Positions 7,111-61,693 of a stretch of DNA of 64,000 bases are shown piece by piece. Both the position numbers and the translations under genes were made by a program. The notes below the pieces were generated by a model. That model had not been told where the DNA came from. It saw only the letters and a list, made by a program, of their open reading frames with translations, and did not search any database. The first letter of the stretch is position 1. The number at the start of each line of letters is the position of its first letter. Source of the stretch: an uncultured Anaerolinea sp. (GTDB lineage: Bacteria; Chloroflexota; Anaerolineae; JAAEKA01); assembly GCA_964626845.1 (NCBI GenBank), contig CAZVGR010000014.1, positions 12,570-76,569 on the forward strand. The letters run 5' to 3'.

Positions 7111-7216
7111 GGGGAGTTGCAAGTTGCAGGTGGCAAGTTGCAGGTGGCAAGTTGCAGGTGGCAAGTTGCAGGTTGCAGGTGGCAAGTTGCAAGTTGCAGG
7201 TGGCAAGTTGCAGGTA
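7111..7216. repeat. Tandem ~14-bp (two heptamer) repeat (GCAAGTTGCAGGTG)n
   Basis: About 7.5 direct units visible in sequence. Confidence 0.9.
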
Positions 7217-7242
7217 GATGCATAAACAGCACAGACAAACGC

Positions 7243-7382
7243 CCTTGTCTACTTGCCTACTTGCCTACTTGCCTACTTGCCTACTTGTCTACTTGTCTAC
7301 TTGCCTACTTGCCTACTTGTCTACTTGCCTACTTGCCTACTTGCCTACTTGCCTACTTGCCTACTTGCCTACTTGCCTACTG
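7243..7382. repeat. Tandem octamer repeat (CTACTTGC/CTACTTGT) x17; reverse complement of the GGCAAGTAG family
   Basis: Direct inspection. Partially complementary to the 7111-7216 array. Confidence 0.9.
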
Positions 7383-7417
7383 ATCTGCCCTCCCAGTGTA
7401 CGCTATGACAATGGCGA

Positions 7418-7446
7418 TTGACAAATCATCTATCGTCCATTATAAT
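7418..7446 (+). promoter_or_regulatory. Consensus sigma-70 promoter TTGACA-17bp-TATAAT upstream of the LacI-family gene
   Basis: 'ttgaca' 7418-7423 and 'tataat' 7441-7446 with exact 17-bp spacing. Confidence 0.55.
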
Positions 7447-7450
7447 CTTT

Positions 7451-7467
7451 GTTAGCGTTAACGAAAC
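7451..7467 (+). promoter_or_regulatory. Candidate operator (palindromic core CGTTAACG) overlapping the predicted transcription start
   Basis: 'gttagcgttaacgaaac' sits immediately downstream of the -10. CG-centred palindrome typical of LacI-family sites. Confidence 0.3.
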
Positions 7468-7499
7468 CCCTCAATGCTGTCGCAATGGAGCGACTCCTC

Positions 7500-8501: not shown

Positions 8502-8643
8502 CGCAAGCGATCAAGGAGGAGAAGAAAGGAGGTGCTGTCGCCCATTTGTCTGCTGCCCATCGATCCACGGCGCAACGACGCCCGTGATGCGGACCCTATG
8601 CCGGTTCCCTGTTGCCCCAAAGATGTCGCTTAGGAGGTTCTCT

Positions 8644-46419: not shown

Positions 46420-47136
46420 TCAGCGCAGTGTCAGCAAAAGCATCATCATCTGCGCTGCCGAACGACGCCGGCCCAGGTCGGGTGCTTGCGTTGTCAGAAT
46501 CTCCTGTAACTTCTTGTGCGCATTGAAGAGCCGCGACTTGACGGTGCCGATGTTGATCTGCAAGGCGTCTGCGATCTCCTCATACGAAAACTCCTGGCCG
46601 TAGCGCATCAGCACCACTTCACGATGCACGTCGCTCAACTGGTTGACCGCGGCCCACAGGCGGACTTTGTCCTCCTGACGCAGGGCCAGGTCCTCTGGAT
46701 TGCCAGCCACGTGGCCGGTCATCGAGCCGTCAGACGGCTCAGCCTCGGCCGGCATGCGCTCCAGGCGCTCTTCCATCTCGTCCCAGTCGGCCGAGGGCAG
46801 GCGTTTTTTGCGCAGCCGCGTCTTGCAGCGGTTGACCGTCACCCGGTAGACCCAGGTCTCGAAGCGGGCCGCGCCGTCCACGTCATAGCTTCTCAGGCCG
46901 CGCAGCACGTCCATGAAAGTCTCCTGCGTGGCCTCTTCGGCGTCGTCGCTGTTGCGCAACGTCATGTAGGCCACGCGGTACACATAGTCCTTGTAGCGCT
47001 CGAACAGCGCGTCAAAGGCCGCTGGCTGGCCGGCCTGGTGACGCCTGATCAATTCCTCGGTGGACACACCGTAGGTTGGGGTCCTGCTGCGCCCAGCCGG
47101 GACTGCGCTGGCAGGGTTCGCTACATCGGAAGGCAC
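46420..47136 (-). CDS. RNA polymerase ECF-type sigma-70 factor
   Basis: Region 2 (FDALFERYKDYVYRVAYMTL...ETFM) and region 4 (FSYEEIADALQINIGTVKSRL). GTG start with AAGGA SD. Confidence 0.8.
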   Translation of the reverse strand: MPSDVANPASAVPAGRSRTPTYGVSTEELIRRHQAGQPAAFDALFERYKDYVYRVAYMTLRNSDDAEEATQETFMDVLRGLRSYDVDGAARFETWVYRVTVNRCKTRLRKKRLPSADWDEMEERLERMPAEAEPSDGSMTGHVAGNPEDLALRQEDKVRLWAAVNQLSDVHREVVLMRYGQEFSYEEIADALQINIGTVKSRLFNAHKKLQEILTTQAPDLGRRRSAAQMMMLLLTLR

Positions 47137-47302
47137 GTCGTATTCCTTGACGCCTGCGGGTTACATGCAGGGCGAGTGGGATTTGTTCGCAGGAGGAGAC
47201 GGCCTGCGAAGATGGGATGGTTCCCGTTGTTGGCTTGCAGTGTAGCCGGGGAGATAGAAGGAGTCAAACTGCGGGGAATGGGTTTGCCGGGGATGAGAGT
47301 GA

Positions 47303-47338
47303 GAGATGACATTTCTTCCGCAGAAATGTCATCTCTGA
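47303..47338. repeat. Palindrome AGAGATGACATTTCT-tccgcag-AGAAATGTCATCTCT (GAGATGACATTTCT family)
   Basis: Direct inspection. Lies between the dinB-like operon end and the sigma gene. Confidence 0.8.
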
Positions 47339-47356
47339 AGGATGGAGGGCAGGCCC

Positions 47357-47845
47357 TTAACGCTCTAGCTCATCGAAGTACGCCCAACTATCCAGCTCCG
47401 GCGGCTCGATGCCCAGTTGCGTCAGAATGGCCATGACCTGGGCGCGGTGCTCGGTGGCATGGTTGATGGCCTGGGTGAGCAGGATTGTCTTGGGCACGTC
47501 GCGCAGCACGCCGTCCCAGTCGATCTCTACCACGTCGCCGGCCTGCACCTGGGGCGCCCAGTCGACCAGGCCGGCGCCGCTGGCGCGCGTCCATGCGAGC
47601 ATCTCGGCCAGGGTCAGCGGCGGCGCATCGGCGGGATGGCGGTACGGCCGGCCGGTGCTGATGCGGGAGAAATAGGAGCGCTCGGCGCTGACGATATGCT
47701 GCAAGGTGTCGCGGATCGAGCCGAACGTGCCCAGCAGCGTGGCGTCCAGTTGTTCGTCGCTCAGCCCGGCGCACAGCTCGATGAGGCGCTCGTTGGCCCA
47801 CAGGTTGTGACGGAAGAGGGTGGTGAGGGTGTCGGTAGGGTTCAT
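47357..47845 (-). CDS. DinB/YfiT-like (DinB_2) family protein
   Basis: Start ATG 47845 (MNPTDT) after GGAG. The ORF extension to 48346 is spurious. His-rich DinB-fold motifs. Confidence 0.65.
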   Translation of the reverse strand: MNPTDTLTTLFRHNLWANERLIELCAGLSDEQLDATLLGTFGSIRDTLQHIVSAERSYFSRISTGRPYRHPADAPPLTLAEMLAWTRASGAGLVDWAPQVQAGDVVEIDWDGVLRDVPKTILLTQAINHATEHRAQVMAILTQLGIEPPELDSWAYFDELER

Positions 47846-48420
47846 GGGAGCACTCCGTTGGTGGCAGCGAAATCGACTTCCTCGGCCGTGGCGATGCGGT
47901 TGGCGCGGCCAGGGTAGCTTAGCCAGGTCATGGCAACGTTGAGGTCGCGGATGATGCTCTCCGCCTCGATGCGCATGCCGTCGTCGAACTCCATGGCGCC
48001 GGTGGTGTGGGCGTCCTTGAGGAGGGTCAGGTCGTAGCCGCGATCCAGCGCGCCGTAGGCTGTGGCGCGGATGCACCAGTTGGTGGCGGCGCCGGCCAGC
48101 ACCACGTGGGTTGCGCTGAGCCGGGCCAGCTCCTCTTCCAGGGTGGTCTGCTCGAACGAGGAGTTGAAGCGCTTGTGGATCACCGGCTCGTCCGCGGCCG
48201 GCGTGAGTTCCGGCGCCCACTGCCACGCCTCGCTGCCGTACACCAACTCCTCGTCCGAATGCTGCACCCAGATCACGGGCGCGCCACGAAGGCGCGCCCG
48301 CTGGACGGCGCGCGCCACATTCCTGACGATGCGGGGGGCATCCCACGCCTCGCTCACCACGCCGACCTGCACATCGACCACCAGCAGGACTGTCTTGTTG
48401 CCTGCGCGTATTGTTGCCAT
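47842..48420 (-). CDS. Isochorismatase family (cysteine hydrolase) protein
   Basis: Start ATG 48420 (MATIRAG) after GGAG. ATGA overlap with the downstream gene. Confidence 0.7.
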   Translation of the reverse strand: MATIRAGNKTVLLVVDVQVGVVSEAWDAPRIVRNVARAVQRARLRGAPVIWVQHSDEELVYGSEAWQWAPELTPAADEPVIHKRFNSSFEQTTLEEELARLSATHVVLAGAATNWCIRATAYGALDRGYDLTLLKDAHTTGAMEFDDGMRIEAESIIRDLNVAMTWLSYPGRANRIATAEEVDFAATNGVLP

Positions 48421-48510
48421 GCCATTATCTCCAATCGCCGTCAGCCAATGGTACGGCGCGATCATGGGTCTCGGCCCATCTGTCGAAAAGCTGAGTGCGC
48501 TCTGTTTGGT

Positions 48511-48699
48511 TCATAGCTGAGGAGTCTCTTCTTCTGTCTCCTCTGCCAACAATTCTTCGAGCACTTGAATGGCGCCGCTGATGCGCTGCAGGGTGGTTTG
48601 CAGATCGGCCTTTTTGGTCTCCAGATCAGCCAGCATTTTTTGGCCGGCTTCGTATTCGGACTTTAACTCGGCGATACGTCGTTCAAGCTGTGGGCGCAT
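48511..48699 (-). CDS. Small coiled-coil hypothetical protein (62 aa)
   Basis: AAAGGA SD 5 nt upstream. Heptad-like sequence. Confidence 0.4.
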   Translation of the reverse strand: MRPQLERRIAELKSEYEAGQKMLADLETKKADLQTTLQRISGAIQVLEELLAEETEEETPQL

Positions 48700-48720
48700 A
48701 TCAAATCCTTTCTGTATGCC

Positions 48721-49062
48721 TTATGACTGCGGGTCGAACTGGAAGACGCGCAACTCCTGGTCGCAGCGGCAGGCCCTGGCGATGCGCGCGGCCCACGCGA
48801 CCGCCTCCTCGCGCGAGGGCAGTTCGAGCACGGTGAAGCCGCCGTCGAGCGGGGGCGCCCACGGATAGCCGCCCTCGGCGACCGCGCCGTCGGCCGAGAC
48901 GAGCACAGGTGGCACGTCCGCGTCGATGCCGCCGCCGAAGACGTAGACGCCGGCAGCCTTTGCCTCATCGATCACGGCATGTGCGTCACGGCCCACCGCC
49001 TCCCACTCGCCGTCGGGCACGTCCATCGCCGCGCTGGGAAAGGAAATCAGGTACTTGGACAT
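48721..49062 (-). CDS. YciI-like (YCII-related) family protein
   Basis: 113 aa. DGPF-type domain pattern. Confidence 0.6.
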   Translation of the reverse strand: MSKYLISFPSAAMDVPDGEWEAVGRDAHAVIDEAKAAGVYVFGGGIDADVPPVLVSADGAVAEGGYPWAPPLDGGFTVLELPSREEAVAWAARIARACRCDQELRVFQFDPQS

Positions 49063-49117
49063 TGGTGCTCCTTCTGTTGGGGATTATGACCGCGAGTTCG
49101 TCGCCTGCAAGCACTCG

Positions 49118-49651
49118 TTAGCCCGGCCGATTGGACAATTGGTCATCTTCTCTGTGACCCGGACACCCCGCGGTTTGGAGTACCATTGTGACGACTTCCT
49201 GCAAAGCGATGCTGGCGTCAATCTCATGATCTGCAACCTTTCGCAACAAAGGCTCAATCTCGGAGATGTTGCTCAGGACAGCGGCTGCTTCTGCGGGGTC
49301 CTTCCCGTATGGATTCCCCGTTCGCGTGGTCAGCCGGTCGAGGAGTACTTCGGCAGGCGCACTTAGCAGGATCACATGATCGAACTGCGGCAGGAACTCT
49401 CCCATATTCGCTGCACAACCACTCACGAAGAGCCAGTCGGCAGCCTCGTCTGCGAGAAGATCCTGAACCGCGTCCTCCCTCCACACCCAGTCCTTGCCAA
49501 CACGGGATCCCGTCGGATTGCCGGCGATGTCGACCCAGTGCGACCACTCTTCTGAGTCGAGATCCACCGCCATGTACCCGAATTCACCGAGTTTCTGCGT
49601 GATCGATGATTTTCCGGTTCCGGACATGCCGGTCAGTAGAACTCGGATCAT
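49118..49651 (-). CDS. P-loop NTPase (small kinase-like AAA family ATPase)
   Basis: Walker A 'LTGMSGTGKSS'. 177 aa. Lower-GC context. Confidence 0.55.
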   Translation of the reverse strand: MIRVLLTGMSGTGKSSITQKLGEFGYMAVDLDSEEWSHWVDIAGNPTGSRVGKDWVWREDAVQDLLADEAADWLFVSGCAANMGEFLPQFDHVILLSAPAEVLLDRLTTRTGNPYGKDPAEAAAVLSNISEIEPLLRKVADHEIDASIALQEVVTMVLQTAGCPGHREDDQLSNRPG

Positions 49652-49855
49652 GAAGCCCTATCCTCCTTGTGATGTCGGTGCCCAAGCGCCTAAACCGGCT
49701 AACGGATCAAGAGATTCATGTGGTGCGCTGGCAGCCAAGAGACAACTCGATTGGCAAAGCCAGCCACCATCATGTACCGTCGTTCAGGGTGCAGAGCGCC
49801 GGTTCTCTTCCTAACATTAGCCGTCCTGTTCGGTTTACGGCTTCGTTCACCGGTG

Positions 49856-50287
49856 TTATTGGTTGGCGACGATTCCGTAGACGTAGATACCATCTTCAGG
49901 CCCGTTCTTGAACCGGTTAGCAACCCGTTGCACGGGCCACATGACCGCTCCGCTGGCCAAGACAACGGCGATGTTCATTTCGGCTTCTGGATCATTGTCG
50001 TCCCCTTGCCACTTCCCGTTGTAAGCACGAATGATGACCTCGCCAACGTATGAGCCGATTGCGAAGATGCGGGAGCCAAGCTGTTCCGCAAGCAGACCCC
50101 CGGGGATGGCTTGTCCGTTTTGCGCATGTTCATCGAAAAACCGATCGATTTCGCGAAGGCTCTCAATCGAAAAATCGGCGTGGTAGCCGGAACTGGAAAG
50201 CGCCTTGGCGATCCACTCTGCCCCTTTTCGGGCGTCATCGATAACCGCCGGCACTTGTGCATGTCGCTTCCGTAACCAGTCAAACAT
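49856..50287 (-). CDS. Hypothetical protein
   Basis: Start ATG 50287 (MFDWLRK); ORF to 50344. No family recognised. Confidence 0.35.
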   Translation of the reverse strand: MFDWLRKRHAQVPAVIDDARKGAEWIAKALSSSGYHADFSIESLREIDRFFDEHAQNGQAIPGGLLAEQLGSRIFAIGSYVGEVIIRAYNGKWQGDDNDPEAEMNIAVVLASGAVMWPVQRVANRFKNGPEDGIYVYGIVANQ

Positions 50288-50539
50288 GCGGGTACCTCTT
50301 ACCAGCGAACGGAATGAGAAATCTACGGGGCATGCTGTCACCAAGCAGGCGCCTCTTCATGCAAAGCCAGTCATCATTAAAGATCGGCGGTTGTTCAGAA
50401 TGAATACCGCCGCACGAAGGCAAGTGTAACATTGCGGGCCAAAAAGGTCAACAGCAATCCCGCCTGGCAAGCGCACAGGACGAGGTGTGATTTCCCAATC
50501 CGCCCGCCATGGGCAATCAGCCATCAACAAGCGCCGGCC

Positions 50540-51050
50540 TCACGGCTCACCTGACTCTTCTTCTGCCTGCAGCCAGGCCAGTGTCTCGGCCTGGGCTTGC
50601 TCAAACGAGACGACCGGTTGATAACCCAGCGCGCGCGCGGCCTTATCGTGCGAGAAGAAGAAGTCAACGCAGGTGGAAGCGACCACATAGCGCGTGAGCG
50701 TTGGGGTCGACGGGCCGATTCCCCGCCGGGCGGCCGTTTCCATCACGATCGCCAGCCAATAGGCCACACGGTAGGGGATGCGCCTCCTCGCCGGCGGGAA
50801 CCCGAACGCGGCCAGGTAAGGTGTGAAGAAATCGAAGAAGTTCCCTGCCGGGTGGTCGCCAATGAAGTACGCCTGCCCGGCGGCTGGGCCAGCCAGCGCC
50901 TCAGCGGCCAGGATGTGGGCATGCACTACGTTGGCCACGTACACAATTGTCAAAGGCGCGAACGCTCACGCCGCGGTTTTTCAGCTCCGAAGCCAGGGCA
51001 GCGCCAAGAAATCCCGCCCCACCTATGACCAGTGCGTTTTGCATCAAGTT
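50540..51050 (-). pseudogene. Disrupted NAD-dependent epimerase/3-beta-hydroxysteroid dehydrogenase gene (N-terminal Rossmann segment fused out of frame to a C-terminal fragment)
   Basis: Minus-strand 'MQNALVIGGAGFLGAALASELKNRGVSVRAFD' at 51046-50951 is in a different frame from the 137-aa C-terminal ORF 50540..50953. About 150 codons of the central domain are missing. Confidence 0.55.
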
Positions 51051-51051
51051 C

Positions 51052-51396
51052 CTATCGATTACCTTTGGCCCGGTTGTGGGTAGTGCAGAGCATCTGGCAG
51101 TTCCTGGCTGTACTTTCGCCGCCTTTGCTCCATGCCGAGACGTGGTCGGCGTCCATTTCGTTGAACTTGTAGATTCTGCTCTTGTTCGCGGTGTCCCCGA
51201 CCGCGCAGAGCGGGCAGTTGGACTTGCCCTTGCCCTGGGCTGCTTGCGTCTGCTGAGTGTAGGCGACTTGCTTTACCTTGTCATCGAATACCCGAACTGC
51301 CAATAACTTCTTGTTTGCCGACGCGGCGTGCAGGCCTTGGTTCAACGACTTGCTTTCCATGGCGTGATTGGCTTCCTTGGGTTTCTTTGATGGCAT
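51052..51396 (-). CDS. HNH endonuclease
   Basis: Motif 'CPLC...DHV.AWSKGG...NCQMLCTTHNRAKGN'. Confidence 0.75.
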   Translation of the reverse strand: MPSKKPKEANHAMESKSLNQGLHAASANKKLLAVRVFDDKVKQVAYTQQTQAAQGKGKSNCPLCAVGDTANKSRIYKFNEMDADHVSAWSKGGESTARNCQMLCTTHNRAKGNR

Positions 51397-51537
51397 TTCG
51401 GGCTAATGTTCCGCTTCAGCCGCGGCGCGCAGCGCCGTCCACTGCATGCTGTTGTTAGCCGGCCTTCCGAGGCCTGTAGTTGCTTTCCTAGTCTCTCCGG
51501 TCATTTGTTCCCATTTCAGAGCGTTGAGCGCGTAGCG

Positions 51538-52590
51538 TCAGTCAGAAACATCATCGGGCATGTCTTCTTGATCGGCATCGACAAGCTCGTCGGTACGCTC
51601 AATTCGGAGCTTATCGTTGCCAACCTCAAACTCGACGTGCCCCCCGTCGGCCATCCGCACCGTCATCGGCGGCAAAGGGTCGGACGCGTCATTCAGTAGC
51701 GCCGCAAGCGGTTCTCGGACGTATCGTTCCAGAAACACGCTCATCACAGGTCCGGCCTTGGACTCAAGGTGCTGCCAAGCTGAGTCGCCAACGAACGCAT
51801 GCCCGCCCACGTCGTGGAACGCCTTAACCAAATCTGTAAGCTTAGGGTTGGGGGTTGGATCAAGTACAACAAGCACGGGAGTGAACCCCGACCCAACACA
51901 GTCAATTGGGAACTGAAGCTCTTCCCCCCACCGGCCTTGGCCCGATGCTGCGATTGTCACACGAATCTTGAATTCGTAAGCCAACTTCTGCTTCACGCAA
52001 TCGACCTGGCGGCCCTTCCCTCGGTCGCCCTGCCGTTTCACGGGGCTTCTCTTCGCACTTACCGGCGTGCCGCCGATGGCATTTGCGAGAATCGGCTCGA
52101 ACAGGTATCCAGTCTCCTGAGCCGCGCGATTGTCCAAGTCGTAAAGCCACTTGCGCCAGTACAGCATTCCGGCGAGTGCCGGGGATGGCAGGCTACCGAA
52201 CTGAAGCAATCCGCGCGGACCCACCTGGTCGAAGGTTGGGAAGGCTTGTCGCTGCAGGATTTGTTCGTACTTTAGGCGGCTCTTGTGCAGTGTTGCGAGG
52301 CAGGAGAAGTACGTGTCTGAGTCCGGCTTGAGGGAGAACAACTTTGCTGCCAAGTCCTCAAATGGAATCCTCGCCAACGTGAGAGAGGAAACCGGCCAAG
52401 TTTCGAAGAACGGCGGCAGGTCTTGAGGTACCTCGGGGACTTGCGAGATGAGATTAAGGTCTTTGACTACGACGCCGCAGAGATAGGCGCAGACCTCTTC
52501 AGAAAGAGGCACTGCCATCTCGCTGTTGCCAACGTTGCGTGCCTTTTCAATAAGCGTCTTCTGAGATAGTGTGAGTTCGTAGTTTGTCAT
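51538..52590 (-). CDS. Putative type II restriction endonuclease (partner of the adjacent C5-methyltransferase)
   Basis: 350 aa, no family recognised. Start codon overlaps the methyltransferase stop. Low-GC island. Confidence 0.45.
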   Translation of the reverse strand: MTNYELTLSQKTLIEKARNVGNSEMAVPLSEEVCAYLCGVVVKDLNLISQVPEVPQDLPPFFETWPVSSLTLARIPFEDLAAKLFSLKPDSDTYFSCLATLHKSRLKYEQILQRQAFPTFDQVGPRGLLQFGSLPSPALAGMLYWRKWLYDLDNRAAQETGYLFEPILANAIGGTPVSAKRSPVKRQGDRGKGRQVDCVKQKLAYEFKIRVTIAASGQGRWGEELQFPIDCVGSGFTPVLVVLDPTPNPKLTDLVKAFHDVGGHAFVGDSAWQHLESKAGPVMSVFLERYVREPLAALLNDASDPLPPMTVRMADGGHVEFEVGNDKLRIERTDELVDADQEDMPDDVSD

Positions 52591-53843
52591 TAGTCCCGTC
52601 CTACTTGCGCGGTCTCGGTGTCCGCGAACAGCGTGAGCTGTTGGGACCGAATGATGGCGCGGTAGCTGCTCTCGACCGCATCGACGGTCTTCTGAAGCGC
52701 TGGGCTCATGCCGTTTGAGTTCGTGGGCACAAAACTCTTAAGCCCTGCGTCCGATCTCCGATCTGTAATCTCGCGGAAGGCATGTGCAAGATGAGCGGCA
52801 ATTGCATTTGCAAAACGAGGCGGTACGGCATTGCCAATAAGCAGGGCTCGCTGCGCCTGAGTACCAGCAAATTCAAAGTCATCGGGAAACGTCTGGAGTC
52901 GCGCACACTCCCGAAGTGTCAGATTGCGATGTGCAGTCGGATGTACGAACTCGGAAGTGGCCCCGCTGGTGATCGCCTTTGACGGCAGGTCCGGATCTAG
53001 TCGCCGTAGTCCTGAAGGTGCGCCCCCCCTGCGTTCTGTTGGGGTCCCATCCATCACCCTCCTGAAGGCGCGGCGGCGGTAGGTTTCGTGCCAGAGTTCC
53101 TCTGGAATGTCCTTCATGGTCTTGCCGATGCCGAGTGCCTCGAAACGAAGACGGTCCATCTCATTCGGCGGACGAGAGAAATGATCGGTAACGACCGCGC
53201 TTTCTGGATCGCATGCTGCATTTGGAAGGCCATCGAGAGCCTTGGCGACGCTGTCGCACAATGGAAGCTTACCCGCCACGAGATCTGCCCCTGGCGCGCC
53301 TGTGGCGCAGTGGGTCGGCTCCGGAAACCCGGGGTCCCATCCTAAACCTGCAATTGCCAACACCCGTTTGCGATGTTGTGGAACCCCGTAGTTAGCGGCG
53401 TTCACTTTGCGAAGGTGAATGCAGTAGCCAGCACTTACAAGAGGATCGAGCAGATCGGTAACCCAACGGCCTCCCTCACCAGTCAGGAAGCCTTCCACGT
53501 TTTCAAAAACAAACGCTTTTGGGCGATGTCTTGCCACGAGGTGAGCGAAGACCGCCACCAGCGTGTTGCGGGCATCACCAGGCTTCCGCAGGCCTGCTGA
53601 CGAGAACCCCTGACAGGGAGGACCACCGATGATGATGTCGCATGGGGGCAGCACCGTGTCCCAGTTGAGCTTCACATTTTCTACATGGTCCCCGATGTTC
53701 CTCCGGTACGTTTCTACCGCAGGCAAGAACGCATCGGCAGCCCAGACGATACTGAAGCCCTGAGCACGAAATCCTAACCCCAGCCCGCCTGCACCGCAGA
53801 AGAGGTCAGCGACTGTGATTGCTGGCCGCATTTCGAAATCCAA
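52590..53843 (-). CDS. DNA (cytosine-5)-methyltransferase
   Basis: Motifs I FCGAGG, IV GGPPCQGFS, VI ENV, VIII QHRKRV, IX/X RLQTFPDDF and GNAVPP. TTG start after a GGAG SD. Confidence 0.85.
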   Translation of the reverse strand: MDFEMRPAITVADLFCGAGGLGLGFRAQGFSIVWAADAFLPAVETYRRNIGDHVENVKLNWDTVLPPCDIIIGGPPCQGFSSAGLRKPGDARNTLVAVFAHLVARHRPKAFVFENVEGFLTGEGGRWVTDLLDPLVSAGYCIHLRKVNAANYGVPQHRKRVLAIAGLGWDPGFPEPTHCATGAPGADLVAGKLPLCDSVAKALDGLPNAACDPESAVVTDHFSRPPNEMDRLRFEALGIGKTMKDIPEELWHETYRRRAFRRVMDGTPTERRGGAPSGLRRLDPDLPSKAITSGATSEFVHPTAHRNLTLRECARLQTFPDDFEFAGTQAQRALLIGNAVPPRFANAIAAHLAHAFREITDRRSDAGLKSFVPTNSNGMSPALQKTVDAVESSYRAIIRSQQLTLFADTETAQVGRD

Positions 53844-53902
53844 CTTTTACTCCATCACGCTAAGTTAGGCAGAAACGCCATCTCAGTTGAGTTCCGGCTA
53901 CC

Positions 53903-54207
53903 GTAACTGCTCAGCCGGCCGGTCAGAAACCGGGTTTTTCTCGTTGGGCAATGATTTCTGAGTTTGCAAACGCATTGCTCGGGGCTATGATAGCCGCTTC
54001 CGCAGCAAAAACCCGGTTTCTCTAAGGAGCTGTTTAAAAAGCCCGGCAGCGTCGGAATCAGAGGTTGAAACCATCTGGCTGAAAGTACGAAGCGGCCTCA
54101 GCCGCTGGATTCCAGGCCCTGAGGGGCCTTCGTGCTGTCAGCCGGTGGGTTTCCAACCACCGATCCGGGGCTTTTCAAACAGCCTCTAAGCCCAGCCTGA
54201 GCAGTAA
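53903..54207. mobile_element. Left copy of a ~140-bp MITE (TIR TAACTGCTCAG.../...CTGAGCAGTAA), interrupted by a nested MITE
   Basis: Reverse-complement match (1 mismatch) to 60237-60376, split by the 54026-54183 insertion. Confidence 0.7.
54026..54183. mobile_element. Nested 158-bp MITE with ~16-bp TIRs (GCTGTTTAAAAAGCCC / GGGGCTTTTCAAACAGC) and 7-bp target-site duplication CTCTAAG
   Basis: CTCTAAG at 54019-54025 and 54184-54190. The right MITE copy at 60237-60376 has a single uninterrupted CTCTAAG. Confidence 0.7.
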
Positions 54208-54354
54208 CCAGCTACCTAATAATTCGCGGGAATGCCGGCCGTCATATCCCGCTATTGCTCCATCGCCTACCGCTGACGGCCAGTCCATAGTGGCCGCCAT
54301 TGTACCATTTCACCCGTGGGAGGGCAAAAGGGCGCGTTCCGGGCTGCCCAGGGC

Positions 54355-54390
54355 GCGAGAGATGCCATTTCTGCGGAAGAAATGGCATCT
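54355..54390. repeat. Palindrome GAGATGCCATTTCT-gcggaag-AGAAATGGCATCTC (GAGATGACATTTCT family) just downstream of the LTD gene stop
   Basis: Direct inspection. Confidence 0.8.
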
Positions 54391-54410
54391 CTTCGCGTCA
54401 CGCCACCACC

Positions 54411-57400
54411 CTACCGGATTGACAACCACGCATCCCACAGAGTCGCCAGCGCCGGCGGCCGCACGGTCAGCACCGCACCAGTGAGGGGCAGGAAGACGGG
54501 CGCGCGGTTCCAGGCCGTGTCGTCCTGCACGCCGTTGCTGTAGGCTGTCCCGTTGGCGCGGCCGGCCGCGGCAGCCCGGCCGCGCTGCAAGTCGGCCTCG
54601 CGGCGCGGCAGCAGGCGATAGCCGCTCTCGGTCTGGCTGACCACGCCCACCACCGTCCACACCTCGCCGATGTTGACGTAGGGCCGGCGGATGCCGGTCG
54701 CAGGCCGGATGGTGATGCGCGCCTCGCCGCTGCCGTCGTCCAGATAGAGGGTGGTTTCCTTCCAGAAGCCGGTGATGGGGCCGCTGAGCTGCACCAGCCG
54801 GCCCTCGTTGGCCTCGGCCACCTCGCCCGTGCGGATAGGCAGCGGCGCAGGCGGCGCGGCCGGCTGCATGGTCTTGATGTCGTCGATGCGCACCAGGCTG
54901 ATCTGCCGCTCCTCGTAGAAGGTGCCCAGCCGGCCGTTGACTCGCACCCACTGCCCCTCGCTGAGCGGCGGCCACTGGGCCGAACGCAGGAAGACCCGCA
55001 TGCCGCCCGTGGCATCCTGGATGTAGATCTCCTGGTCGTCAAAGACGTTGGGCAGCGCCGTCACCTGGCCCTCCAGCGTCAGCCGCGTGCCGTCGGGCAG
55101 GCTGCGGGCGTGGGCGATGGTCGCCAGGTCGAAGTTGAAGCGGTCGTAGGGCTGTCCACTGCCCGACCCGCCGCCGCTACTGCTTCCACCGCCGCCGCCC
55201 GATCCGCCGCCGCTGTTGGGGTCGGCCGCGTTGGCCTGGCCTGGCGTTTCGATGCAGTCGCGGGACCACTCGCCCACGCCATCGGGCAGTCGGCACCAGG
55301 ATTGGTCATAGCCGGAGAAGACATTGTAGCTCATGCTGTCGGCCAGACTATTGTCCGGGTAGAGCAAGCGCACCTGTTCGCTGCTGGCGTCCAGCGCCAA
55401 GCCGCTCTGAGCGCGGTAGATCACCAGATAGCCCTGGGCCGGCAGCACAAGACCAGAGGGCAGGATGTAGGTCCGGTCTGGCTCATGGCTGGCTGGCTGG
55501 CCATCAGCCAGCTTCCAACCGGCCAGATCGACTGGCTCCTCGCCCAGATTTGTCAACTCGATCCACTCGTCCAGATAGCTTGGGACGCCGTTGCCGTCCC
55601 AGTCCACGTTCTGCGGCGAGGGCAGCACCTCGTTCAGCCGCACGGTGGTGGCCACCGGCGTCGGCGTCAGTTGCGGCGTCGCGGTGGGCGTCGGCGTGGG
55701 CGTGCCGCCGGGCGTGTTGCTGCCGCCGGGCGTGGGCGGGTAGCTGCGCGTCCACTCTGCGCCGCCGTCCACCGTCTTACTGGCGGCCTGATCGTCGCGG
55801 CTGCTGCTGTACTGGGTCTCCTCCACCACCAGGCCATCGGGCCGCAGCAGCCGCACCCAGTCGCCGTCGTTGTTCAGGGCGATGCCGGTCTGGCTGCGGA
55901 AGAAGAGCAGGAAGCCGCGGGCCGGGATGGTCGCGCCGGGCGGCAGGGTGTAGGGCGCTGAGCCGCCGCTCGCCACGTCGTCCAACTGCCAGCCGCTCAG
56001 ATCGACCGCGAAGTCGTTGGCGTTGTATAGCTCGATGTACTCATCGTCCTGGTTGGCTGCGCCGTCGCCGTTCCAATCGGAGGCGGGGTCGGGCATGTAC
56101 TCGTTCAGGCCGACGCCATCAGGATAGACGCCGGGCGTAGCCGTCAGCGTGGCAGTCGGTGTTGGCGTCGGGGTCGCGGCCTGGTTGGACGCGCCGGGCG
56201 AGGGCGGGTAGGCCATCGTCCACTGGTCGCCGCCGTCCACCGTCTTGCTGTAACTGACGTCGGCCGGCGCGGCCGTGTAGCTGTGGTTCTCCACCTCCAC
56301 GCCGTCGGGCCGCAGCAGCCGCACGCTGTCGCCGCCGCTGTTGTTGAGGGCGATGGCCGTGTCCCGGCTCCACAGGGTTAGGAAGCCTTGCGCCTCGATC
56401 ACCGCGCCGGCCGGCAAGGTGTAGGGCGACGACCCACCGCCCGCCACATCGTCCACCTGCCAACCGCTTAAGTCGACGGCGAAGTCGTTGGCGTTGTAGA
56501 GCTCGATGTACTCGTCGTTGGCGTCGCCCACGATGCCATCGCCGTTCCAGTCGGCCTCGGGGTTGGGCATGAACTCGTTGAGCACAATGCCATCAGGGTA
56601 GACCACGGGCGTACCGGTGGGCGTGGCGGTCGGGGTAGGCGTGGCCGTAGGGGTGTTGGCAGCCTGGTTGGACGCGCCGGGCGAGGGTGGGTAGCTCATC
56701 GTCCATTCGTCGCCGCCATCTGTGGTCTTGCTGTAGCTGACGTCGGCCGGCGCGGCTGTGTAGGGGTGGTTCTCCACCTCCACACCGTCGGGCCGCAGCA
56801 GCCGCACGCTGTCGCCGCCGCTGTTGTTGAGGGCGATGTTCGTGTCGCGGCTCCAGAACACCAGGAAACCTTGCGCCTCGATCACCGCGCCAGCCGGCAA
56901 GGTATAGGGGGACGAGCCGCCGCCGGCGACGTCGTCTACCTGCCAGCCGCTCAGGTCGACGGCAAAATCGTTGGCGTTGTAGAGCTCAATGTACTCGTCG
57001 TTGGCGTCGCCCCGGATGCCGTCTTCGTTCCAGTCAGCCTCGGGATTGGGCATGAACTCGTTGAGCACGATGCCTTCGGGATAGTCTACCGGCAGCGGGG
57101 TTGGCGTGGGCGTCGGCGTGCCGGCCGGCTGGTTGGATGCGCCAGGCGAGGGCGGATAGTCCGTCGTCCACTGGTCGCCGCCGTCCACGGTCTTGCTGTA
57201 GCTCACATCGGCCGGCGCGGCCGTGTAGCTGTGGCTCTCCACCTCCACACCGTCGGGGCGCAGCAAGCGCACGCTGTCGCCGCCGCTGTTGTTGAGAGCG
57301 ATGTTTGTGTCCCGGCTCCAGAACACCAGGAAGCCTTGCGCCTCGATCACCGCGCCAGCAGGCAAGGTATAGGGGGACGAGCCGCCGTTGGCGATGTCAT

Positions 57401-60173
57401 CCAACCGCCAGCCGCTCAGGTTGACGGGGAAGTCGTTGGCGTTGTACAGCTCGATGTACTCGTCGTTGGCGTCGCCAATGATGCCATCTTCGTTCCAGTC
57501 GGCCTCCGGGTTGGGCATGAACTCGTTGAGCACGATGCCGTCAGGGTAGACCACGGGCGTGCCGGTGGGCGTGGCCGTCGGGGTAGGCGCGGCCGTGGGA
57601 GTGTTGGCGGGCCGGTTGGGCGCGCCGGGCGAAGGCGGATAACTGCGCGTCCACTGGCTACCGCCGTCCACAGTCTTGCTGTAAGCCTCATCGTCGCGGC
57701 TGCTGGGATATTCGACCTGCTCGACGACTGCCCCATCAGGCCGCAGCAGGCGCACCCAGTCGCCGTCGTTGTTGAGCGCAATGCCGCTCTGGCTGCGAAA
57801 AACCAGCAGAAAGCCGCGCGCCTCAATGATTGTGCCGGTGGGCAGGATGTAAGGCGGGCTGCCGCTGGGCGTGAAGGGCGAGCGAAGCTGGCCAAAGCCA
57901 TCGTCTACGTCGTCCAGGCGCCAGCCGCTGAGATCGACGGCAAAGTCGTTGGCGTTGTACAGCTCGATATATTCGTCGTTCAGATCAGCCGTGCCGTTGC
58001 CGTCCCAATCGGAGGCGGGGTCGGGCATGAATTCGTTGAGGCTGATGCCATCAGGATAGACGCCGGGGGTGGCTGTTGGCGTCGCAGTCGGCGTTGGGGC
58101 CGGTTGGTTGGATGCGCCAGGCGAGGGCGGGTGGGTCATCGTCCACTGGTCGCCGCCATCCTCTGTTTTGCTGTAGGCCACGTCAGCCGGCGCGGCGGTG
58201 TAGCTGTGGCTCTCCACCTCCACGCCGTCGGGCGTCAGCAGACGCGCTGCATCGCCGCCGCTGTTGTTGAGGGCGATGCGCGTGTCCCGGCTCCAGAACA
58301 CCAGGAAGCCCTGCGCTTCGATCACTGTGCCGGCCGGCAGGGTGTAGGGGGACGAGCCGCCGCTGGCGATGTCGTCCAGTTGCCAGCCGCTCAGGTCCAC
58401 AGCGAAGTCGTTGGCGTTGTACAGCTCGATGTACTCGTCGTTAGTGTCCCCCAGGATGCCGTCGTCGTTCCAGTCGGCCTCCGGGTTAGGCATAAACTCG
58501 TTCAGGCTGACGCCTTCCGGGTAGGGCGTAGGCGAGGCGGCGGGCGTCGTTGCAGATGTGGGCGATGGCGTCGCCGTTGGCGTGGGCGTAGGTGTGGCCG
58601 TTGGCGTAATCGTGGGCGTGGCTGTCCAGGCCGGCGGCTGGTTGGATGCGCCAGGCGACGGCGGGTAGGCCATGGTCCATTCTGCGCCGCCGTCCACGGT
58701 CTTACTGTAACTCACGTCAGCCGGCGCAGCCGTGTAGAAGTGGCTTTCGACCTCCACCCCGTCCGGCCGCAGCAGCCGCGCCCAGTCGCCGCCGCTGTTG
58801 TTGAGCGCGATGCCGGTGTCCCGGCTCCACAGCACCAGATGGGACTGCGACTCGATCCAGGCGCCGGCCGGCAGGGTGTAGGGCGCTGATCCGCCGTTAG
58901 CCACGTCGTCCAGCATCCACCCACCGATGTCCACGGCAAAGTCGTTGGCGTTGTAGATCTCGATGTACTCGTCGTTGCCGTCGCCCAGAATGCCGTCGTT
59001 GTTCCAGTCGGCCTCCGGATTGGGCATGAACTCGTTCAGGCTGAGGCCGGTGGGATAGACGGCCGGGGTGGCCGTGTGGGTGGGGGTTGGGGGCGGCGCG
59101 GGTTGGTTGGAAGCGCCCGGCGAGGGCGGGTAGGTCATGGTCCAATCGCTGCCGCCATCCACCGTTTTGCTGTAGGCCACGTCAGCCGGCGCAGCGGTGT
59201 AGCTGTAGCTCTCGACCTCAACACCGTCGGGCCGCAGCAGACGCACCATGTCGCCGCCGCTGTTGTTGAGCGCAATGCGAGTATCCCGGCTCCACAGCGC
59301 CAGGAAGCCATGCGCCTGGATCGTCGTGCCAGCAGGCAAGGTGTAAGGCGACGAGCCGCCGTTGGGTATGTCATCCACGCGCCAGCCGCCCAAATCAACG
59401 GCAAAATCGTTGGGATTATACAGCTCGATGTACTCGTCGTTGGCGTCGCCGAAAATGCCGTCGTCGTTCCAGTCGGCCTCGGGGTTGGGCATGAACTCGT
59501 TGAGGTGGATGACAAGCGGCGCGGGGGTGGGCGAAGGAGTCGCAGTGGGCGTGGGCGTGGCGGTGGCTGGCCCTGGCGGCTGATTGGCGGCGCCTGGCGA
59601 GGGTGGGTAATCAGCCGTCCACTGGTTGCCGCCATCGACTGTTTTGCTGAAGGCCCCATCCGCTTGGGTCTGGGTGTAGCTGAAGCTCTCAACAGGGACA
59701 TCGTCCGGCGTCAACAGGCGCACCGCGCCGCTGCTGTCGTCCAACTCAAGGCCTGTTTGGACACCCCACAGCACCAAATGACGCTGCGCGCGCAGCACTG
59801 TACCAGGAGGCAGCGCATAGGGCGGCAAGCCGCTGCTCTCGCCAGCGTCCAGCTTCCACCCGCTGATGTCCACGTCGAAAGGGTTGGCGTTATAAAGCTC
59901 GATGTATTCGTCGTTGTTGCCGCCCGTCACCCCATCGCCGTTCCAGTCATACACCGGCTGTGGCATTAACTCGTTGAGGACAACGCCGCCAGGATAGCTG
60001 CTCTGAGCAGCCGCAGGCAGCACCCCTGCGCCACGCGCGATCTGTGGGCCGAGAACGAGCAGCAGAACACTGCCGGCTGTCAGCAGGCCGGCGATCCAGG
60101 AACGATACGATGCACGACAAGACGACATGATCCCACCTCCACAAAGCTGTCTGGCAGGCCGATCCCACGACAC
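54411..60173 (-). CDS. Secreted giant protein with ten tandem lamin-tail-domain (LTD) repeats, Thr/Pro linkers, a Gly/Ser-rich linker and a C-terminal OB-fold-like domain
   Basis: 1920 aa. Signal peptide. Ten copies of 'LNEFMPNPEADWN.DG..GD.NDEYIELYNANDFAVDLSGW.LDD...GGSSPYTLPAG' (LTD/PF00932-like), each followed by a PTPTATP linker. ~450-bp near-identical DNA periodicity. Confidence 0.8.
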   Translation of the reverse strand: MSWDRPARQLCGGGIMSSCRASYRSWIAGLLTAGSVLLLVLGPQIARGAGVLPAAAQSSYPGGVVLNELMPQPVYDWNGDGVTGGNNDEYIELYNANPFDVDISGWKLDAGESSGLPPYALPPGTVLRAQRHLVLWGVQTGLELDDSSGAVRLLTPDDVPVESFSYTQTQADGAFSKTVDGGNQWTADYPPSPGAANQPPGPATATPTPTATPSPTPAPLVIHLNEFMPNPEADWNDDGIFGDANDEYIELYNPNDFAVDLGGWRVDDIPNGGSSPYTLPAGTTIQAHGFLALWSRDTRIALNNSGGDMVRLLRPDGVEVESYSYTAAPADVAYSKTVDGGSDWTMTYPPSPGASNQPAPPPTPTHTATPAVYPTGLSLNEFMPNPEADWNNDGILGDGNDEYIEIYNANDFAVDIGGWMLDDVANGGSAPYTLPAGAWIESQSHLVLWSRDTGIALNNSGGDWARLLRPDGVEVESHFYTAAPADVSYSKTVDGGAEWTMAYPPSPGASNQPPAWTATPTITPTATPTPTPTATPSPTSATTPAASPTPYPEGVSLNEFMPNPEADWNDDGILGDTNDEYIELYNANDFAVDLSGWQLDDIASGGSSPYTLPAGTVIEAQGFLVFWSRDTRIALNNSGGDAARLLTPDGVEVESHSYTAAPADVAYSKTEDGGDQWTMTHPPSPGASNQPAPTPTATPTATPGVYPDGISLNEFMPDPASDWDGNGTADLNDEYIELYNANDFAVDLSGWRLDDVDDGFGQLRSPFTPSGSPPYILPTGTIIEARGFLLVFRSQSGIALNNDGDWVRLLRPDGAVVEQVEYPSSRDDEAYSKTVDGGSQWTRSYPPSPGAPNRPANTPTAAPTPTATPTGTPVVYPDGIVLNEFMPNPEADWNEDGIIGDANDEYIELYNANDFPVNLSGWRLDDIANGGSSPYTLPAGAVIEAQGFLVFWSRDTNIALNNSGGDSVRLLRPDGVEVESHSYTAAPADVSYSKTVDGGDQWTTDYPPSPGASNQPAGTPTPTPTPLPVDYPEGIVLNEFMPNPEADWNEDGIRGDANDEYIELYNANDFAVDLSGWQVDDVAGGGSSPYTLPAGAVIEAQGFLVFWSRDTNIALNNSGGDSVRLLRPDGVEVENHPYTAAPADVSYSKTTDGGDEWTMSYPPSPGASNQAANTPTATPTPTATPTGTPVVYPDGIVLNEFMPNPEADWNGDGIVGDANDEYIELYNANDFAVDLSGWQVDDVAGGGSSPYTLPAGAVIEAQGFLTLWSRDTAIALNNSGGDSVRLLRPDGVEVENHSYTAAPADVSYSKTVDGGDQWTMAYPPSPGASNQAATPTPTPTATLTATPGVYPDGVGLNEYMPDPASDWNGDGAANQDDEYIELYNANDFAVDLSGWQLDDVASGGSAPYTLPPGATIPARGFLLFFRSQTGIALNNDGDWVRLLRPDGLVVEETQYSSSRDDQAASKTVDGGAEWTRSYPPTPGGSNTPGGTPTPTPTATPQLTPTPVATTVRLNEVLPSPQNVDWDGNGVPSYLDEWIELTNLGEEPVDLAGWKLADGQPASHEPDRTYILPSGLVLPAQGYLVIYRAQSGLALDASSEQVRLLYPDNSLADSMSYNVFSGYDQSWCRLPDGVGEWSRDCIETPGQANAADPNSGGGSGGGGGSSSGGGSGSGQPYDRFNFDLATIAHARSLPDGTRLTLEGQVTALPNVFDDQEIYIQDATGGMRVFLRSAQWPPLSEGQWVRVNGRLGTFYEERQISLVRIDDIKTMQPAAPPAPLPIRTGEVAEANEGRLVQLSGPITGFWKETTLYLDDGSGEARITIRPATGIRRPYVNIGEVWTVVGVVSQTESGYRLLPRREADLQRGRAAAAGRANGTAYSNGVQDDTAWNRAPVFLPLTGAVLTVRPPALATLWDAWLSIR

Positions 60174-60236: not shown

Positions 60237-60376
60237 TTACTGCTCAGGCTGGGCTTAGAGAAACCGGGTTTTTGCTGCGGAAGCGGCTATCATAGCCCCG
60301 AGCAATGCGTTTGCAAGCTCAGAAATCATTGCCCAACGAGAAAAACCCGGTTTCTGACCGGCCGGCTGAGCAGTTA
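60237..60376. mobile_element. Right copy of the ~140-bp MITE in inverted orientation, with 9-bp target-site duplication CGGCGTTTG
   Basis: CGGCGTTTG directly flanks both ends (60228-60236 and 60378-60386). Internal hairpins (gcaatg...cattgc; gctatgatagc). Confidence 0.7.
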
Positions 60377-60439
60377 CCGGCGTTTGTTGTAATGGGGCTG
60401 ACGCCGGCGCTGCTATGGGGCGCCGATTCCAGCCTGAGC

Positions 60440-60496: not shown

Positions 60497-61693
60497 CTAT
60501 GCTTGCTTGCCGTCCTTGGGCAGGTCGCCCAGGGCGCTTTCCAGGGAGCCCAGCCAGCGCTGCGCCTCTTGCAGGCGGTGCGCGGCGTAGGTCTCTTGCA
60601 GCCGCCAGAGCTGGCGGATCAGCCCACGCAATGTTTCGATGTCCTTACGCAGCGGCGGGAAGCCCACAGCCAGGTCGCGGTTGACCTTGTCCTGCTCGGC
60701 CCAGCGGTGATCCCACTCCAGGGTCTGCTTCTTCCAGCGCTTCTCGTCCTCGCTCAGGAACGCGTCCAGCTCCTTGCGCTGGCGCTCCTCGGCCAGGCGC
60801 TGCAGCTCGGCCACCTGGTGCTGGTCGCGGCGGATGCTCTCCTCGAAGCCTTGCAAGCTCTGCAAGATGCGCCGGCTGTCGTTGATGTGGGTATCAAAGC
60901 CCTGAACCCGCTTCTGCTGCTCGGCCATCAGATCGCGCTGTTGCTCAAACTCCTGCTGCCAGTTGGCCAGTTGGCGGGTGCGCTCTACGTCTGCCAGCTT
61001 CTGGCTCTCGACAAAGCTGGCCACCTCGTTGCGCATCTGATCGGGCACAGGCTGCACTGCGGCTACGGCCCGTTCCACCCGTTGAATGGCAGCTTCCAAA
61101 GGCGGCACCTTGCCAAACACGGCCTCGCTGCGCTTGAACAACTCCACGGTCTCCTGTTGCAACTGAGCAATCCGCTTGTTGTCCTGGGCGCGCTGCTCCA
61201 TGATAAAGGGCAGGCTGCGGGTACGCTCGTCGATGTCCTTGTTGATGTTGTTGACCTGCTGGCGCACCGCCATCACAATTTCACTCAGCCGTTGGTCTTC
61301 CGCCTTGCGCTGCTGCAGTTCCTCTTCGATGCGGCTGAAGCGCGGCAGCTCCTTGCGTACTTCTGACAGGCCGCGCGCGGCCGCCTCGCGCTCCGCGCCG
61401 CGCAGCCGCTCGCTCTCACGCTGGTCGGCCAGGCGCTGCTCCTCCTGGCGTTGCAGCATCAGTACCAGCTCATTCTTGAGCTGCTGCATGGCATCATCCA
61501 CCTGGCTGAAACGCACCAGTTGGGCCTGGGTGCTGGCCAACTGGCCCTCCAACTCCTGGATGCGCCGGGACTGCTCGACAATTTCAGTCGCCTGGCCCTC
61601 GATGCGCTGTTGCAGCTTGGCGATTTCCCCGCGGCCACGCCGATGTTCTTCGTCCAGCCAGGTAACCATCTGGCTCAGTTGATCTATATCCAT
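60497..61693 (-). CDS. Hypothetical coiled-coil protein
   Basis: 398 aa. Highly charged E/Q/R-rich heptad-like sequence. No family recognised. Confidence 0.5.
   Translation of the reverse strand: MDIDQLSQMVTWLDEEHRRGRGEIAKLQQRIEGQATEIVEQSRRIQELEGQLASTQAQLVRFSQVDDAMQQLKNELVLMLQRQEEQRLADQRESERLRGAEREAAARGLSEVRKELPRFSRIEEELQQRKAEDQRLSEIVMAVRQQVNNINKDIDERTRSLPFIMEQRAQDNKRIAQLQQETVELFKRSEAVFGKVPPLEAAIQRVERAVAAVQPVPDQMRNEVASFVESQKLADVERTRQLANWQQEFEQQRDLMAEQQKRVQGFDTHINDSRRILQSLQGFEESIRRDQHQVAELQRLAEERQRKELDAFLSEDEKRWKKQTLEWDHRWAEQDKVNRDLAVGFPPLRKDIETLRGLIRQLWRLQETYAAHRLQEAQRWLGSLESALGDLPKDGKQA

Follow-up and report, generated by a model that had tools for sequence, protein, structure and literature searches.

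What is the role of a very large secreted protein that is built from ten copies of the lamin-tail domain (LTD) and carries no enzyme? The question is raised by a gene on the minus strand of a 64,000-nucleotide stretch of DNA (the window) from an uncultured Anaerolinea sp. of the phylum Chloroflexota (assembly GCA_964626845.1, contig CAZVGR010000014.1, positions 12,570 to 76,569). An original prediction, made from the letters of this DNA, had described the product as a 1920-residue scaffold of near-identical LTD-like modules with a C-terminus resembling an oligonucleotide/oligosaccharide-binding (OB) fold, possibly a DNA- or polymer-binding array whose copy number is hypervariable. Our analysis points to a surface-tethered, non-catalytic fibre with a ligand-binding pair of OB folds, made by filamentous-type Chloroflexota (Anaerolineae/Caldilineae), and we give this reading an even chance of being correct. 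Within this model, DNA and some other ligand are about equally probable.

All coordinates given below are window positions, and residues are numbered from the GTG of an open reading frame (ORF) of 1920 codons. According to the ORF list and its translation this ORF (54411..60173, minus strand) is uninterrupted, as had been stated; the length of the product, however, probably has to be corrected. Codon 16 is an ATG (60128-60126), which we regard as the likelier true start, because the sequence GGAGGTG (60140-60134) lies 5 nt upstream and a secretion-type N-terminus begins there; the resulting protein has 1905 residues. On inspection, this N-terminus consists of a basic n-region, a hydrophobic core of 17 residues and a c-region of the A-R-G/A-G-like type. 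It is kept at the related locus L002 and in the homologues P0001 and P0003, and is predicted to be a secretion signal. The gene is composed as follows:

54411..60128, minus strand: LTD gene, 1905-residue product (ATG 60128-60126, stop 54413-54411; the mechanical GTG ORF reaches 60173)
60030..60128, minus strand: signal-peptide-like N-terminus, MSSCRASYRSWIAGLLTAGSVLLLVLGPQIARG, residues 16 to ~48 (read from the sequence)
59592..59990, minus strand: LTD module 1, residues 62-194, net charge -14 (Pfam LTD; module alignment)
55725..59516, minus strand: LTD modules 2-9 with linkers rich in Pro and Thr, residues 220-1483 (Pfam LTD); limits of modules 2-5: 220-353, 375-508, 553-686, 708-850; limits of modules 6-9: 878-1011, 1033-1166, 1194-1327, 1352-1483
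55236..55649, minus strand: LTD module 10, residues 1509-1646 (module alignment)
55155..55235, minus strand: flexible linker rich in Gly and Ser, residues 1647-1673, ending in ...SGGGSGGGGGSSSGGGSGSG
54588..55154, minus strand: tandem OB-fold domain, residues 1674-1862, with the conserved motifs IYIQDATGG and LYLDDGSGEA
54414..54587, minus strand: C-terminal tail, residues 1863-1920, predicted to be disordered (predicted local distance difference test score, pLDDT, < 50)
54477-54491, minus strand: LPLTG motif, residues 1895-1899

Signal peptide, modules, linkers, OB pair and tail account for the whole protein; no residues are left over. The Pfam model LTD (PF00932) matches in 10 separate stretches (E = 3.1e-173; 565.4 bits, gathering cut-off 34.3), and a motif scan places the module anchors at residues 66, 224, 379, 557, 712, 882, 1037, 1198, 1356, and 1513. 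The modules are 132-143 residues long; the nine linkers between them comprise 21-44 residues each (235 in total), of which 67-89% are Pro, Thr, Ser or Ala. In order to assess the fold, module 8 was modelled by means of AlphaFold2, using an alignment of 40 diverse modules of the family. The model is confident (pLDDT 91.7), and ranks 1-16 of a Foldseek search of the PDB are occupied by the immunoglobulin (Ig)-like tails of lamins A/C, B1, and B2 (E = 3e-5 to 3e-3, template modelling (TM) scores ~0.5-0.6). PDB searches based on sequence only were uninformative (best matches: YgiW, E = 0.15; lamin B1, E = 0.7). According to the model, the modules are Ig-like beta-sandwiches of the lamin-tail type. 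They share this fold with the tails of eukaryotic nuclear lamins at a sequence identity of 12-22%, but differ from them in being very acidic and extracellular, in possessing a calcium-loop-like insertion, and in lacking an attached coiled-coil rod.

The C-terminal 247 residues were modelled (AlphaFold) with 34 homologues. The model consists of two five-stranded OB barrels at residues ~1697-1768 and ~1793-1864 (model residues 24-95 and 120-191; pLDDT ~97). DNA binders with two OB folds, namely Teb1 AB, Thermus SSB, HIN-200, and RPA70 AB, occupy the top Foldseek ranks; their TM-scores are low (0.23-0.37), and the relative arrangement of the two barrels is therefore the protein's own. Scanned alone, the 247 residues exceed the cut-offs of the Pfam families BOF (PF04076; 31.1 vs 25.8, the full-length scan giving 24.3, which is below the cut-off) and tRNA_anti-codon OB (28.5 vs 27). 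The NCBIfam YgiW/YdeI models remain below their cut-offs on the OB region (30.2 vs 35; 25.6 vs 108), and the match of DUF5689 (PF18942), a Pfam model which spans the whole OB pair in distant relatives, is weak (18.3 vs 28.6 bits). Note that BOF/YgiW-YdeI proteins are single-domain periplasmic proteins of ~110-130 residues, whereas here two OB barrels are joined at the end of a 1905-residue protein. The OB pair also matches positions 30-112, i.e. the OB part, of the NCBIfam ExeM/NucH nuclease model (E = 1e-4); the same part is matched by the OB pairs of 18 of the 34 relatives (best E = 3e-8). These matches suggest homology between the pair and the OB region located ahead of the catalytic domain in ExeM/NucH nucleases. 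A catalytic domain as such, be it a nuclease (EEP included) or another enzyme, was not found in the protein by Pfam and NCBIfam scans.

As regards the architecture, the original prediction has thus largely been borne out: it had proposed ten tandem LTD modules, linkers rich in Pro/Thr plus one rich in Gly/Ser (which follows module 10), the absence of a recognisable nuclease domain, and an OB-fold-like C-terminus, which is now sharpened to two barrels. Beforehand, modules of a Big/Ig or cadherin-like fold and a catalytic C-terminus had been named as the counter-case; the profile and structure comparisons returned LTDs and a non-catalytic C-terminus.

The gene is not an isolated case. A search with the whole protein gave 492 scored homologues, the closest of which (P0001, 1929 residues; P0002, 1943; P0003, 1920) are ~70% identical over the full length. 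Where homologues are named, they are called "lamin tail domain-containing protein", and their sources are metagenome-assembled genomes (MAGs) of Anaerolineae, Caldilineae, Ardenticatenia or "Chloroflexi". These Chloroflexota proteins (MCB0203342.1, MCB9155320.1; P0001-P0120) likewise possess a signal peptide, 1-10 LTDs, tandem OB folds, and an LPxTG-type or transmembrane C-terminus, and the nearest ones, with 70-80% identity, occupy the same genomic position as the window gene. Within this family, the window protein lies at the upper end of LTD number (10) and is further characterised by a conserved 21-residue tail which does not span the membrane. No exact copy of the window protein was found in the genome collection. 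A genome scan with a single OB-pair sequence detected loci that are 56-81% identical in MAGs of Anaerolineae and Caldilineales, and weaker matches in Eisenbacteria, Rubrivirga, and Bacteroidales. With an OB-pair profile, 15,388 cluster representatives were found at E <= 1e-3 and 6,680 at E <= 1e-10, many of them with 2-6 copies. The domain content was sampled in 40 of the best representatives: 17 contain LTDs and 13 DUF5689, others Big_5, SLH, CWB2 or SdrD_B domains. Distant loci have the OB pair joined to a PLD-like domain (L012) or to an LTD (L010). Hence, the novelty that had been ascribed to a nuclease-free LTD scaffold was overstated: LTDs plus a tandem OB pair without an enzyme are a common architecture and not an exception, and the window gene is an ordinary member of a large, already annotated Chloroflexota family. 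Mans et al. 2004, cited in PMC6085458, had drawn attention to multi-LTD repeat proteins of bacteria before; experimental work on an LTD plus OB-pair protein of this family was not found in the literature searched.

A side observation concerns the locus L013 of a Rubrivirga sp. MAG (6894-8912, plus strand), where the OB pair forms the extracytoplasmic, outward-facing part of a PAS/histidine kinase. The pair can therefore act in sensing, and this implies that a soluble or polymeric ligand is bound.

What the OB pair might do is best approached via proteins of known function. ExeM of Shewanella oneidensis is composed of a signal peptide, an LTD, two OB folds, and an EEP domain; a deletion of its OB region abolishes activity, whereas a deletion of the LTD merely reduces it (PMC6085458). 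The window protein resembles ExeM and NucH (NF033680, NF033681) with respect to signal peptide, N-terminal LTD, two OB folds, and C-terminal sorting or anchor signal; like them, it is presumably extracellular and envelope-associated. The OB match to these enzymes is direct but sub-threshold, and the whole protein reaches 112.2 (cut-off 1300) and 14.9-21.4 (cut-off 300) with the ExeM/NucH models. In contrast to ExeM/NucH, it contains no EEP domain, ten LTDs instead of one, and an LPxTG-type motif instead of GlyGly-CTERM, and its host belongs to the Chloroflexota and not to the Gammaproteobacteria. Cell-wall-anchored nucleases with a YhcR-type OB fold and LPXTG also exist (PMC4118848). Among these, YhcR of Bacillus subtilis and SWAN of Streptococcus sanguinis are, like the window protein, secreted and equipped with YhcR-type OB fold(s) and a C-terminal LPXTG (PMC4118848), but they possess SNase/5'-nucleotidase or DNase I-like domains, a canonical hydrophobic anchor after LPXTG, and no LTD array. 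Some relatives of the window protein are named after the COG 'YhcR' by JGI.

Because the homologous OB region is required for the activity of ExeM/NucH, the OB pair is the likeliest ligand binder of the window protein. By analogy, the protein probably corresponds in function to the surface-tethered half of an ExeM/NucH/YhcR nuclease, which captures the substrate, with no enzyme attached; in support of this role, some relatives have the same OB pair joined to a PLD or SNase nuclease. The likeness admits a second interpretation, namely that the gene is the remnant of a degenerate ExeM/NucH-type nuclease which lost its catalytic domain, has no selected function, and harbours a neutrally expanding array. 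Its architecture does equal the N-terminal half of ExeM/NucH, and the array has been homogenised internally (modules 6-8). However, several species possess an intact full-length ORF of ~70-80% identity in the equivalent genomic position, the OB pair is conserved in 6680 cluster representatives (E <= 1e-10), the C-terminal motif is conserved, and among the close homologues one pair looks split whereas the others are intact. The conservation of ORF, OB pair, and C-terminal motif signals purifying selection and thus largely refutes the remnant, which we consider highly improbable. The split pair, P0143 and P0144, is encoded on one 43.6-kb contig in the cluster of P0001; a close homologue is divided there into products of 1318 and 576 residues, due either to a frameshift/pseudogene or to an assembly error inside the repeats.

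The array itself has properties which speak against a DNA binder. The net charge of a single module is -14 to -20, with 19-25 Asp and Glu residues and one or two Lys; that of the whole protein is -165. In all ten modules, the motif D-W-[ND]-x-[DN]-G-x5-[DN]-[DE] lies between the first strand (LNEFMP) and the strand EYIEL, and the form Dx[DN]x[DN]G...[DE] is present in 294 of 538 modules of the family. The motif spacing matches the calcium loops of EF-hands, dockerins or integrins, and the loop was modelled at high confidence in module 8. Judged by this motif, the LTD modules may bind calcium via their DxNxDG...DE loop, and the array looks like a calcium-binding acidic stalk rather than a DNA-binding surface. 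Since the modules are strongly acidic and carry this motif, direct binding of DNA by the array is unlikely. For the DNA- or polymer-binding array that had been proposed, this means that the LTD part is weakened and that the OB pair is left as the only credible binder, although it is not basic.

The same features might also belong to a purely structural or adhesive component of the envelope of filamentous Chloroflexota (a sheath, an S-layer-like brush or an adhesin) that has nothing to do with DNA. In that case, the LTD array would be the functional part and mediate calcium-dependent contacts to cells, surfaces or minerals, and the OB pair would be a non-covalent anchor on a polymer of the cell's own wall. 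The extreme acidity of the array and its calcium-loop-like motifs speak for such a component, as do the Pro/Thr-rich linkers, which are typical of extracellular stalks. Moreover, relatives combine these modules with SdrD_B, CBM_4_9, VCBS/FG-GAP, PKD, Big_5, SLH, and CWB2 domains, a typical equipment of adhesins and wall proteins; the OB pair always adjoins the C-terminal anchor; most OB-pair proteins contain no nuclease domain; and the module count, which is 10 both in the window and in P0001-3, suggests selection on length. On the other hand, the OB pair co-occurs with SLH, CWB2 or membrane anchors, which makes wall binding redundant, and those of its sequence relatives that have a known role are found in nucleases. 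We therefore rate a purely structural role as possible, though somewhat unlikely.

How the fibre would be held at the surface is a question of the C-terminus. In the window protein, LPLTG is followed by the 21 residues AVLTVRPPALATLWDAWLSIR, and the maximum 17-residue Kyte-Doolittle mean (0.86) is too low for a membrane span. The tail is conserved in P0002, P0003, P0121-123, and P0126. The C-terminal tail of P0001 diverges in a frameshift-like manner and carries no LPxTG motif. For the family, 134 relatives with a complete OB pair were evaluated, and a hydropathy stretch of at least 1.8 served as the threshold for an anchor. A motif of the LPx[TA]G type occurs in 101 of them (75%), 6-40 residues after the OB pair (median 9), and 45 times in the form LPVTG. 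A classical sorting signal, i.e. a hydrophobic stretch plus a basic end, is present in 19 of the 101 motif-bearing relatives (e.g. P0006, P0009, P0127), and 48 of the 101 terminate at most 12 residues past the motif. A subgroup with two OB pairs has no LPx[TA]G motif and ends in a hydrophobic stretch with a basic tail.

Taken as a fibre with a ligand-binding OB pair, the protein would be exported by Sec and subsequently be retained at the cell surface via its C-terminus. The likely tether would be a sortase-like processing at LPLTG, the alternative being another kind of retention of the tail. Since the anchor end is C-terminal, the OB pair would lie next to the wall, and the divergent module 1 would form the tip. 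The ten acidic and probably calcium-stiffened modules would project outwards; for ten Ig-like domains and the 235 linker residues, we estimate an extended length of the order of 100 nm. The array would act as a spacer or brush and not as a DNA-binding surface, whereas the OB pair would bind a polymer, with extracellular DNA as the leading candidate. By analogy with ExeM, this ligand would most likely be extracellular nucleic acid, and the wall-anchored nucleases with YhcR-type OB folds point in this direction too; it is the weakest step of the model. A dedicated, catalytically inert capture fibre for extracellular DNA or other polyanions, whose OB pair holds the polymer at the wall under a calcium-stiffened acidic LTD brush and which is attached by an LPxTG motif that has no membrane anchor in most members, appears unlikely to us.

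Several findings have to be held against the fibre and its proposed ligand. The OB pair is near neutral (net charge -4) and not basic; conservation is strongest at Asp and Gly (IYIQDATGG, LDDGSG) and not at aromatic or basic positions. Its sequence as such thus gives no evident sign of DNA binding. Only two of the 40 sampled OB-pair proteins contain a nuclease domain (one PLD-like, one SNase), so that the case for DNA draws on a small share of the architectures and on what OB folds generally tend to bind. The LPLTG of the window protein lacks a subsequent hydrophobic anchor, and the search for a sortase in the 64-kb window, a weak test, detected neither an SrtA-like ORF (phmmer with an SrtA query) nor a TLxTC motif. 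Finally, the neighbouring genes gave no hint to the function of the LTD protein.

A further set of questions concerns the repeats, which had been described as near-identical, with a periodicity of ~450 bp and very high identity. The sequences contradict this: module spacing is 155-178 residues (465-534 bp), pairwise identity is 34-93% for protein and 50-88% for DNA, and exact DNA matches between modules reach 54 bp at most. Tandem Repeats Finder reported 5.8 copies only (73% matches, period 483). Module 1 is divergent (52-61% identity to modules 2-9), and modules 2-9 are 60-93% identical among themselves. They comprise the subtypes A (modules 2, 3, 4, 6, 7, 8) and B (modules 5, 9) in the order AAABAAAB. 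Module 10 diverges most (34-43% identity to the other nine) and alone contains two Cys; its 1:1 positional orthologues are 70-77% identical to it.

A comparison of copy number among relatives, which had been named as a check, could be made on the level of assemblies. The window protein, P0001, P0002, and P0003 have exactly 10 modules, L002 (a short-read MAG) has nine in the order AABBBAB, and more distant relatives have 8 and 7. In P0001-3, the subtype order is AAABABAB, as opposed to AAABAAAB in the window. Modules 1, 5, 9, and 10 have positional orthologues in P0001-3, whereas modules 6-8 of the window are 89-92% identical to each other and 77-82% to any orthologue module. Internal type-A modules are thus closer within than between proteins, which indicates gene conversion or turnover inside the array. 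Conceivably, the gene is a contingency locus, whose repeat number shifts often within populations by slippage or recombination and generates surface variation. Module number (10, 9, 8, 7) and subtype order do vary between species; modules m5/m7 and m6/m8 of P0001 are 99% identical, and L005 contains an exact internal repeat of 863 bp, so that near-identical copies exist in other lineages. In addition, many MAG contigs break within the gene; module counts from short-read assemblies are therefore uncertain. Against frequent shifts stand the short exact matches (at most 54 bp) and the DNA identity of 50-88% in the window, the count of 10 shared with P0001-3, and the finding that full-length mates of the same 90% cluster are equal or near-equal in length (1929/1931, 1726/1726). 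Judging from these comparisons, the array appears to evolve by recombination over species-level time; the window repeats would be poor substrates for slippage, and hypervariability of the locus, as originally claimed, is not supported. We regard a contingency locus as quite improbable.

The surroundings of the gene were inspected as well. Gene order is kept at L002, L005, L007, L008, and L017: an S-adenosylmethionine (SAM) hydroxide adenosyltransferase and an enzyme with the fold of 5-enolpyruvylshikimate-3-phosphate (EPSP) synthase (MurA/AroA-type) are followed by a 398-residue coiled-coil protein and the LTD gene. The coiled-coil gene (60497-61693, minus strand) lies directly upstream of the LTD gene and is 75-93% identical and syntenic in five related genomes; its product is nearly all coiled coil, with weak SMC/Rad50 matches and no Pfam family. 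A coiled-coil protein beside a lamin-tail protein is a curious pairing; however, the former has no signal peptide and its gene has a terminator-like hairpin of its own, and therefore a functional link is not indicated. The hairpin, with its T-run, lies at the end of the coiled-coil gene and suggests that the LTD gene is transcribed as a separate unit. An operon context was rejected, the neighbours (EPSP synthase, adenosyltransferase, coiled-coil, restriction-modification (R-M), DinB, and extracytoplasmic function (ECF) sigma/anti-sigma-A2M genes) showing no functional link. Long ORFs on the opposite strand within the gene (e.g. 56766-58889, plus strand) were put down to the usual by-product of a GC-rich gene.

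The following elements flank the gene:

60254..60377, minus strand: 124-bp element, copy 1, in the 5' intergenic region, with hairpin and promoter-like site
54358..54392, no strand assigned: perfect hairpin of 35 bp with 15-bp arms, 19-53 nt past the LTD stop codon
53903..54026, plus strand: 124-bp element, copy 2, 99.2% identical and inverted, just downstream of the gene

The two inverted 124-bp copies bracket the entire LTD gene. The element contains a pair of 15-nt hairpin arms, AGAAACCGGGTTTTT and AAAAACCCGGTTTCT, 67 nt apart, and a promoter-like site (TTGCAA-16-TATGAT, 60316-60289) that points into the LTD gene. It was not found at any related locus examined, and Rfam detected no family in the gene or its flanks, this element included. 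It could be a small mobile element resembling a miniature inverted-repeat transposable element (MITE), or a substrate for gene inversion. An invertible promoter switch was rejected, because both copies hold the same inward promoter-like site and an inversion would leave expression unchanged.

In the relatives, the LTD gene is followed downstream, at once or beyond a stretch of variable content, by the genes of an ECF sigma factor and of a zf-HC2/alpha-2-macroglobulin protein. In the window, these are encoded at 46420-47136 and 42087-46379 (both minus strand); the latter product has 1430 residues and combines an N-terminal zf-HC2 anti-sigma motif with alpha-2-macroglobulin domains (MG2, bait region, A2M), an unusual fusion which is conserved at L001, L004, L007, and L017. 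Between the LTD and the sigma gene lies a variable island (~47300-54400) of lower GC content (0.57-0.58; cf. L017, 15928-17968). It contains a C5 cytosine DNA methylase (52590-53843, minus strand) and a 350-residue ORF (51538-52590, minus strand), which is probably the restriction enzyme partner of the methylase. The genome of P0002 has another R-M system at this position (N6_N4 methylase and BglII-type endonuclease), and at L001 and L004 hardly anything separates the LTD gene from the sigma gene; the island looks like an insertion hotspot for R-M systems. A 94% copy of the 35-bp hairpin (47302-47336) lies at the other island edge, next to the sigma/DinB genes, and the hairpin may mark the island boundary or be a shared terminator.

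For the biology of the phylum, these findings are of interest in several respects. Some of the largest secreted proteins of the Anaerolineae and Caldilineae, two groups that abound in sludge, sediments, and hot springs, have this LTD plus tandem-OB architecture. The family-wide LPxTG motif without a membrane anchor is a concrete oddity in protein sorting; if it attaches a capture fibre such as the one rated unlikely above, the Chloroflexota would process C-termini by a route, sortase-type or other, unlike that of the Firmicutes/Actinobacteria model. The acidic, calcium-loop-bearing bacterial LTD, like the motif a trait of the family and not of the window protein in particular, also bears on the role that the ancestral lamin-tail fold may have had before its use by eukaryotes. 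If the OB pair binds extracellular DNA, the fibres would be a non-enzymatic way to hold DNA at the cell surface. In this phylum, about whose envelope little is known, DNA held in such a way might go into the biofilm matrix, be a source of phosphorus or be taken up.

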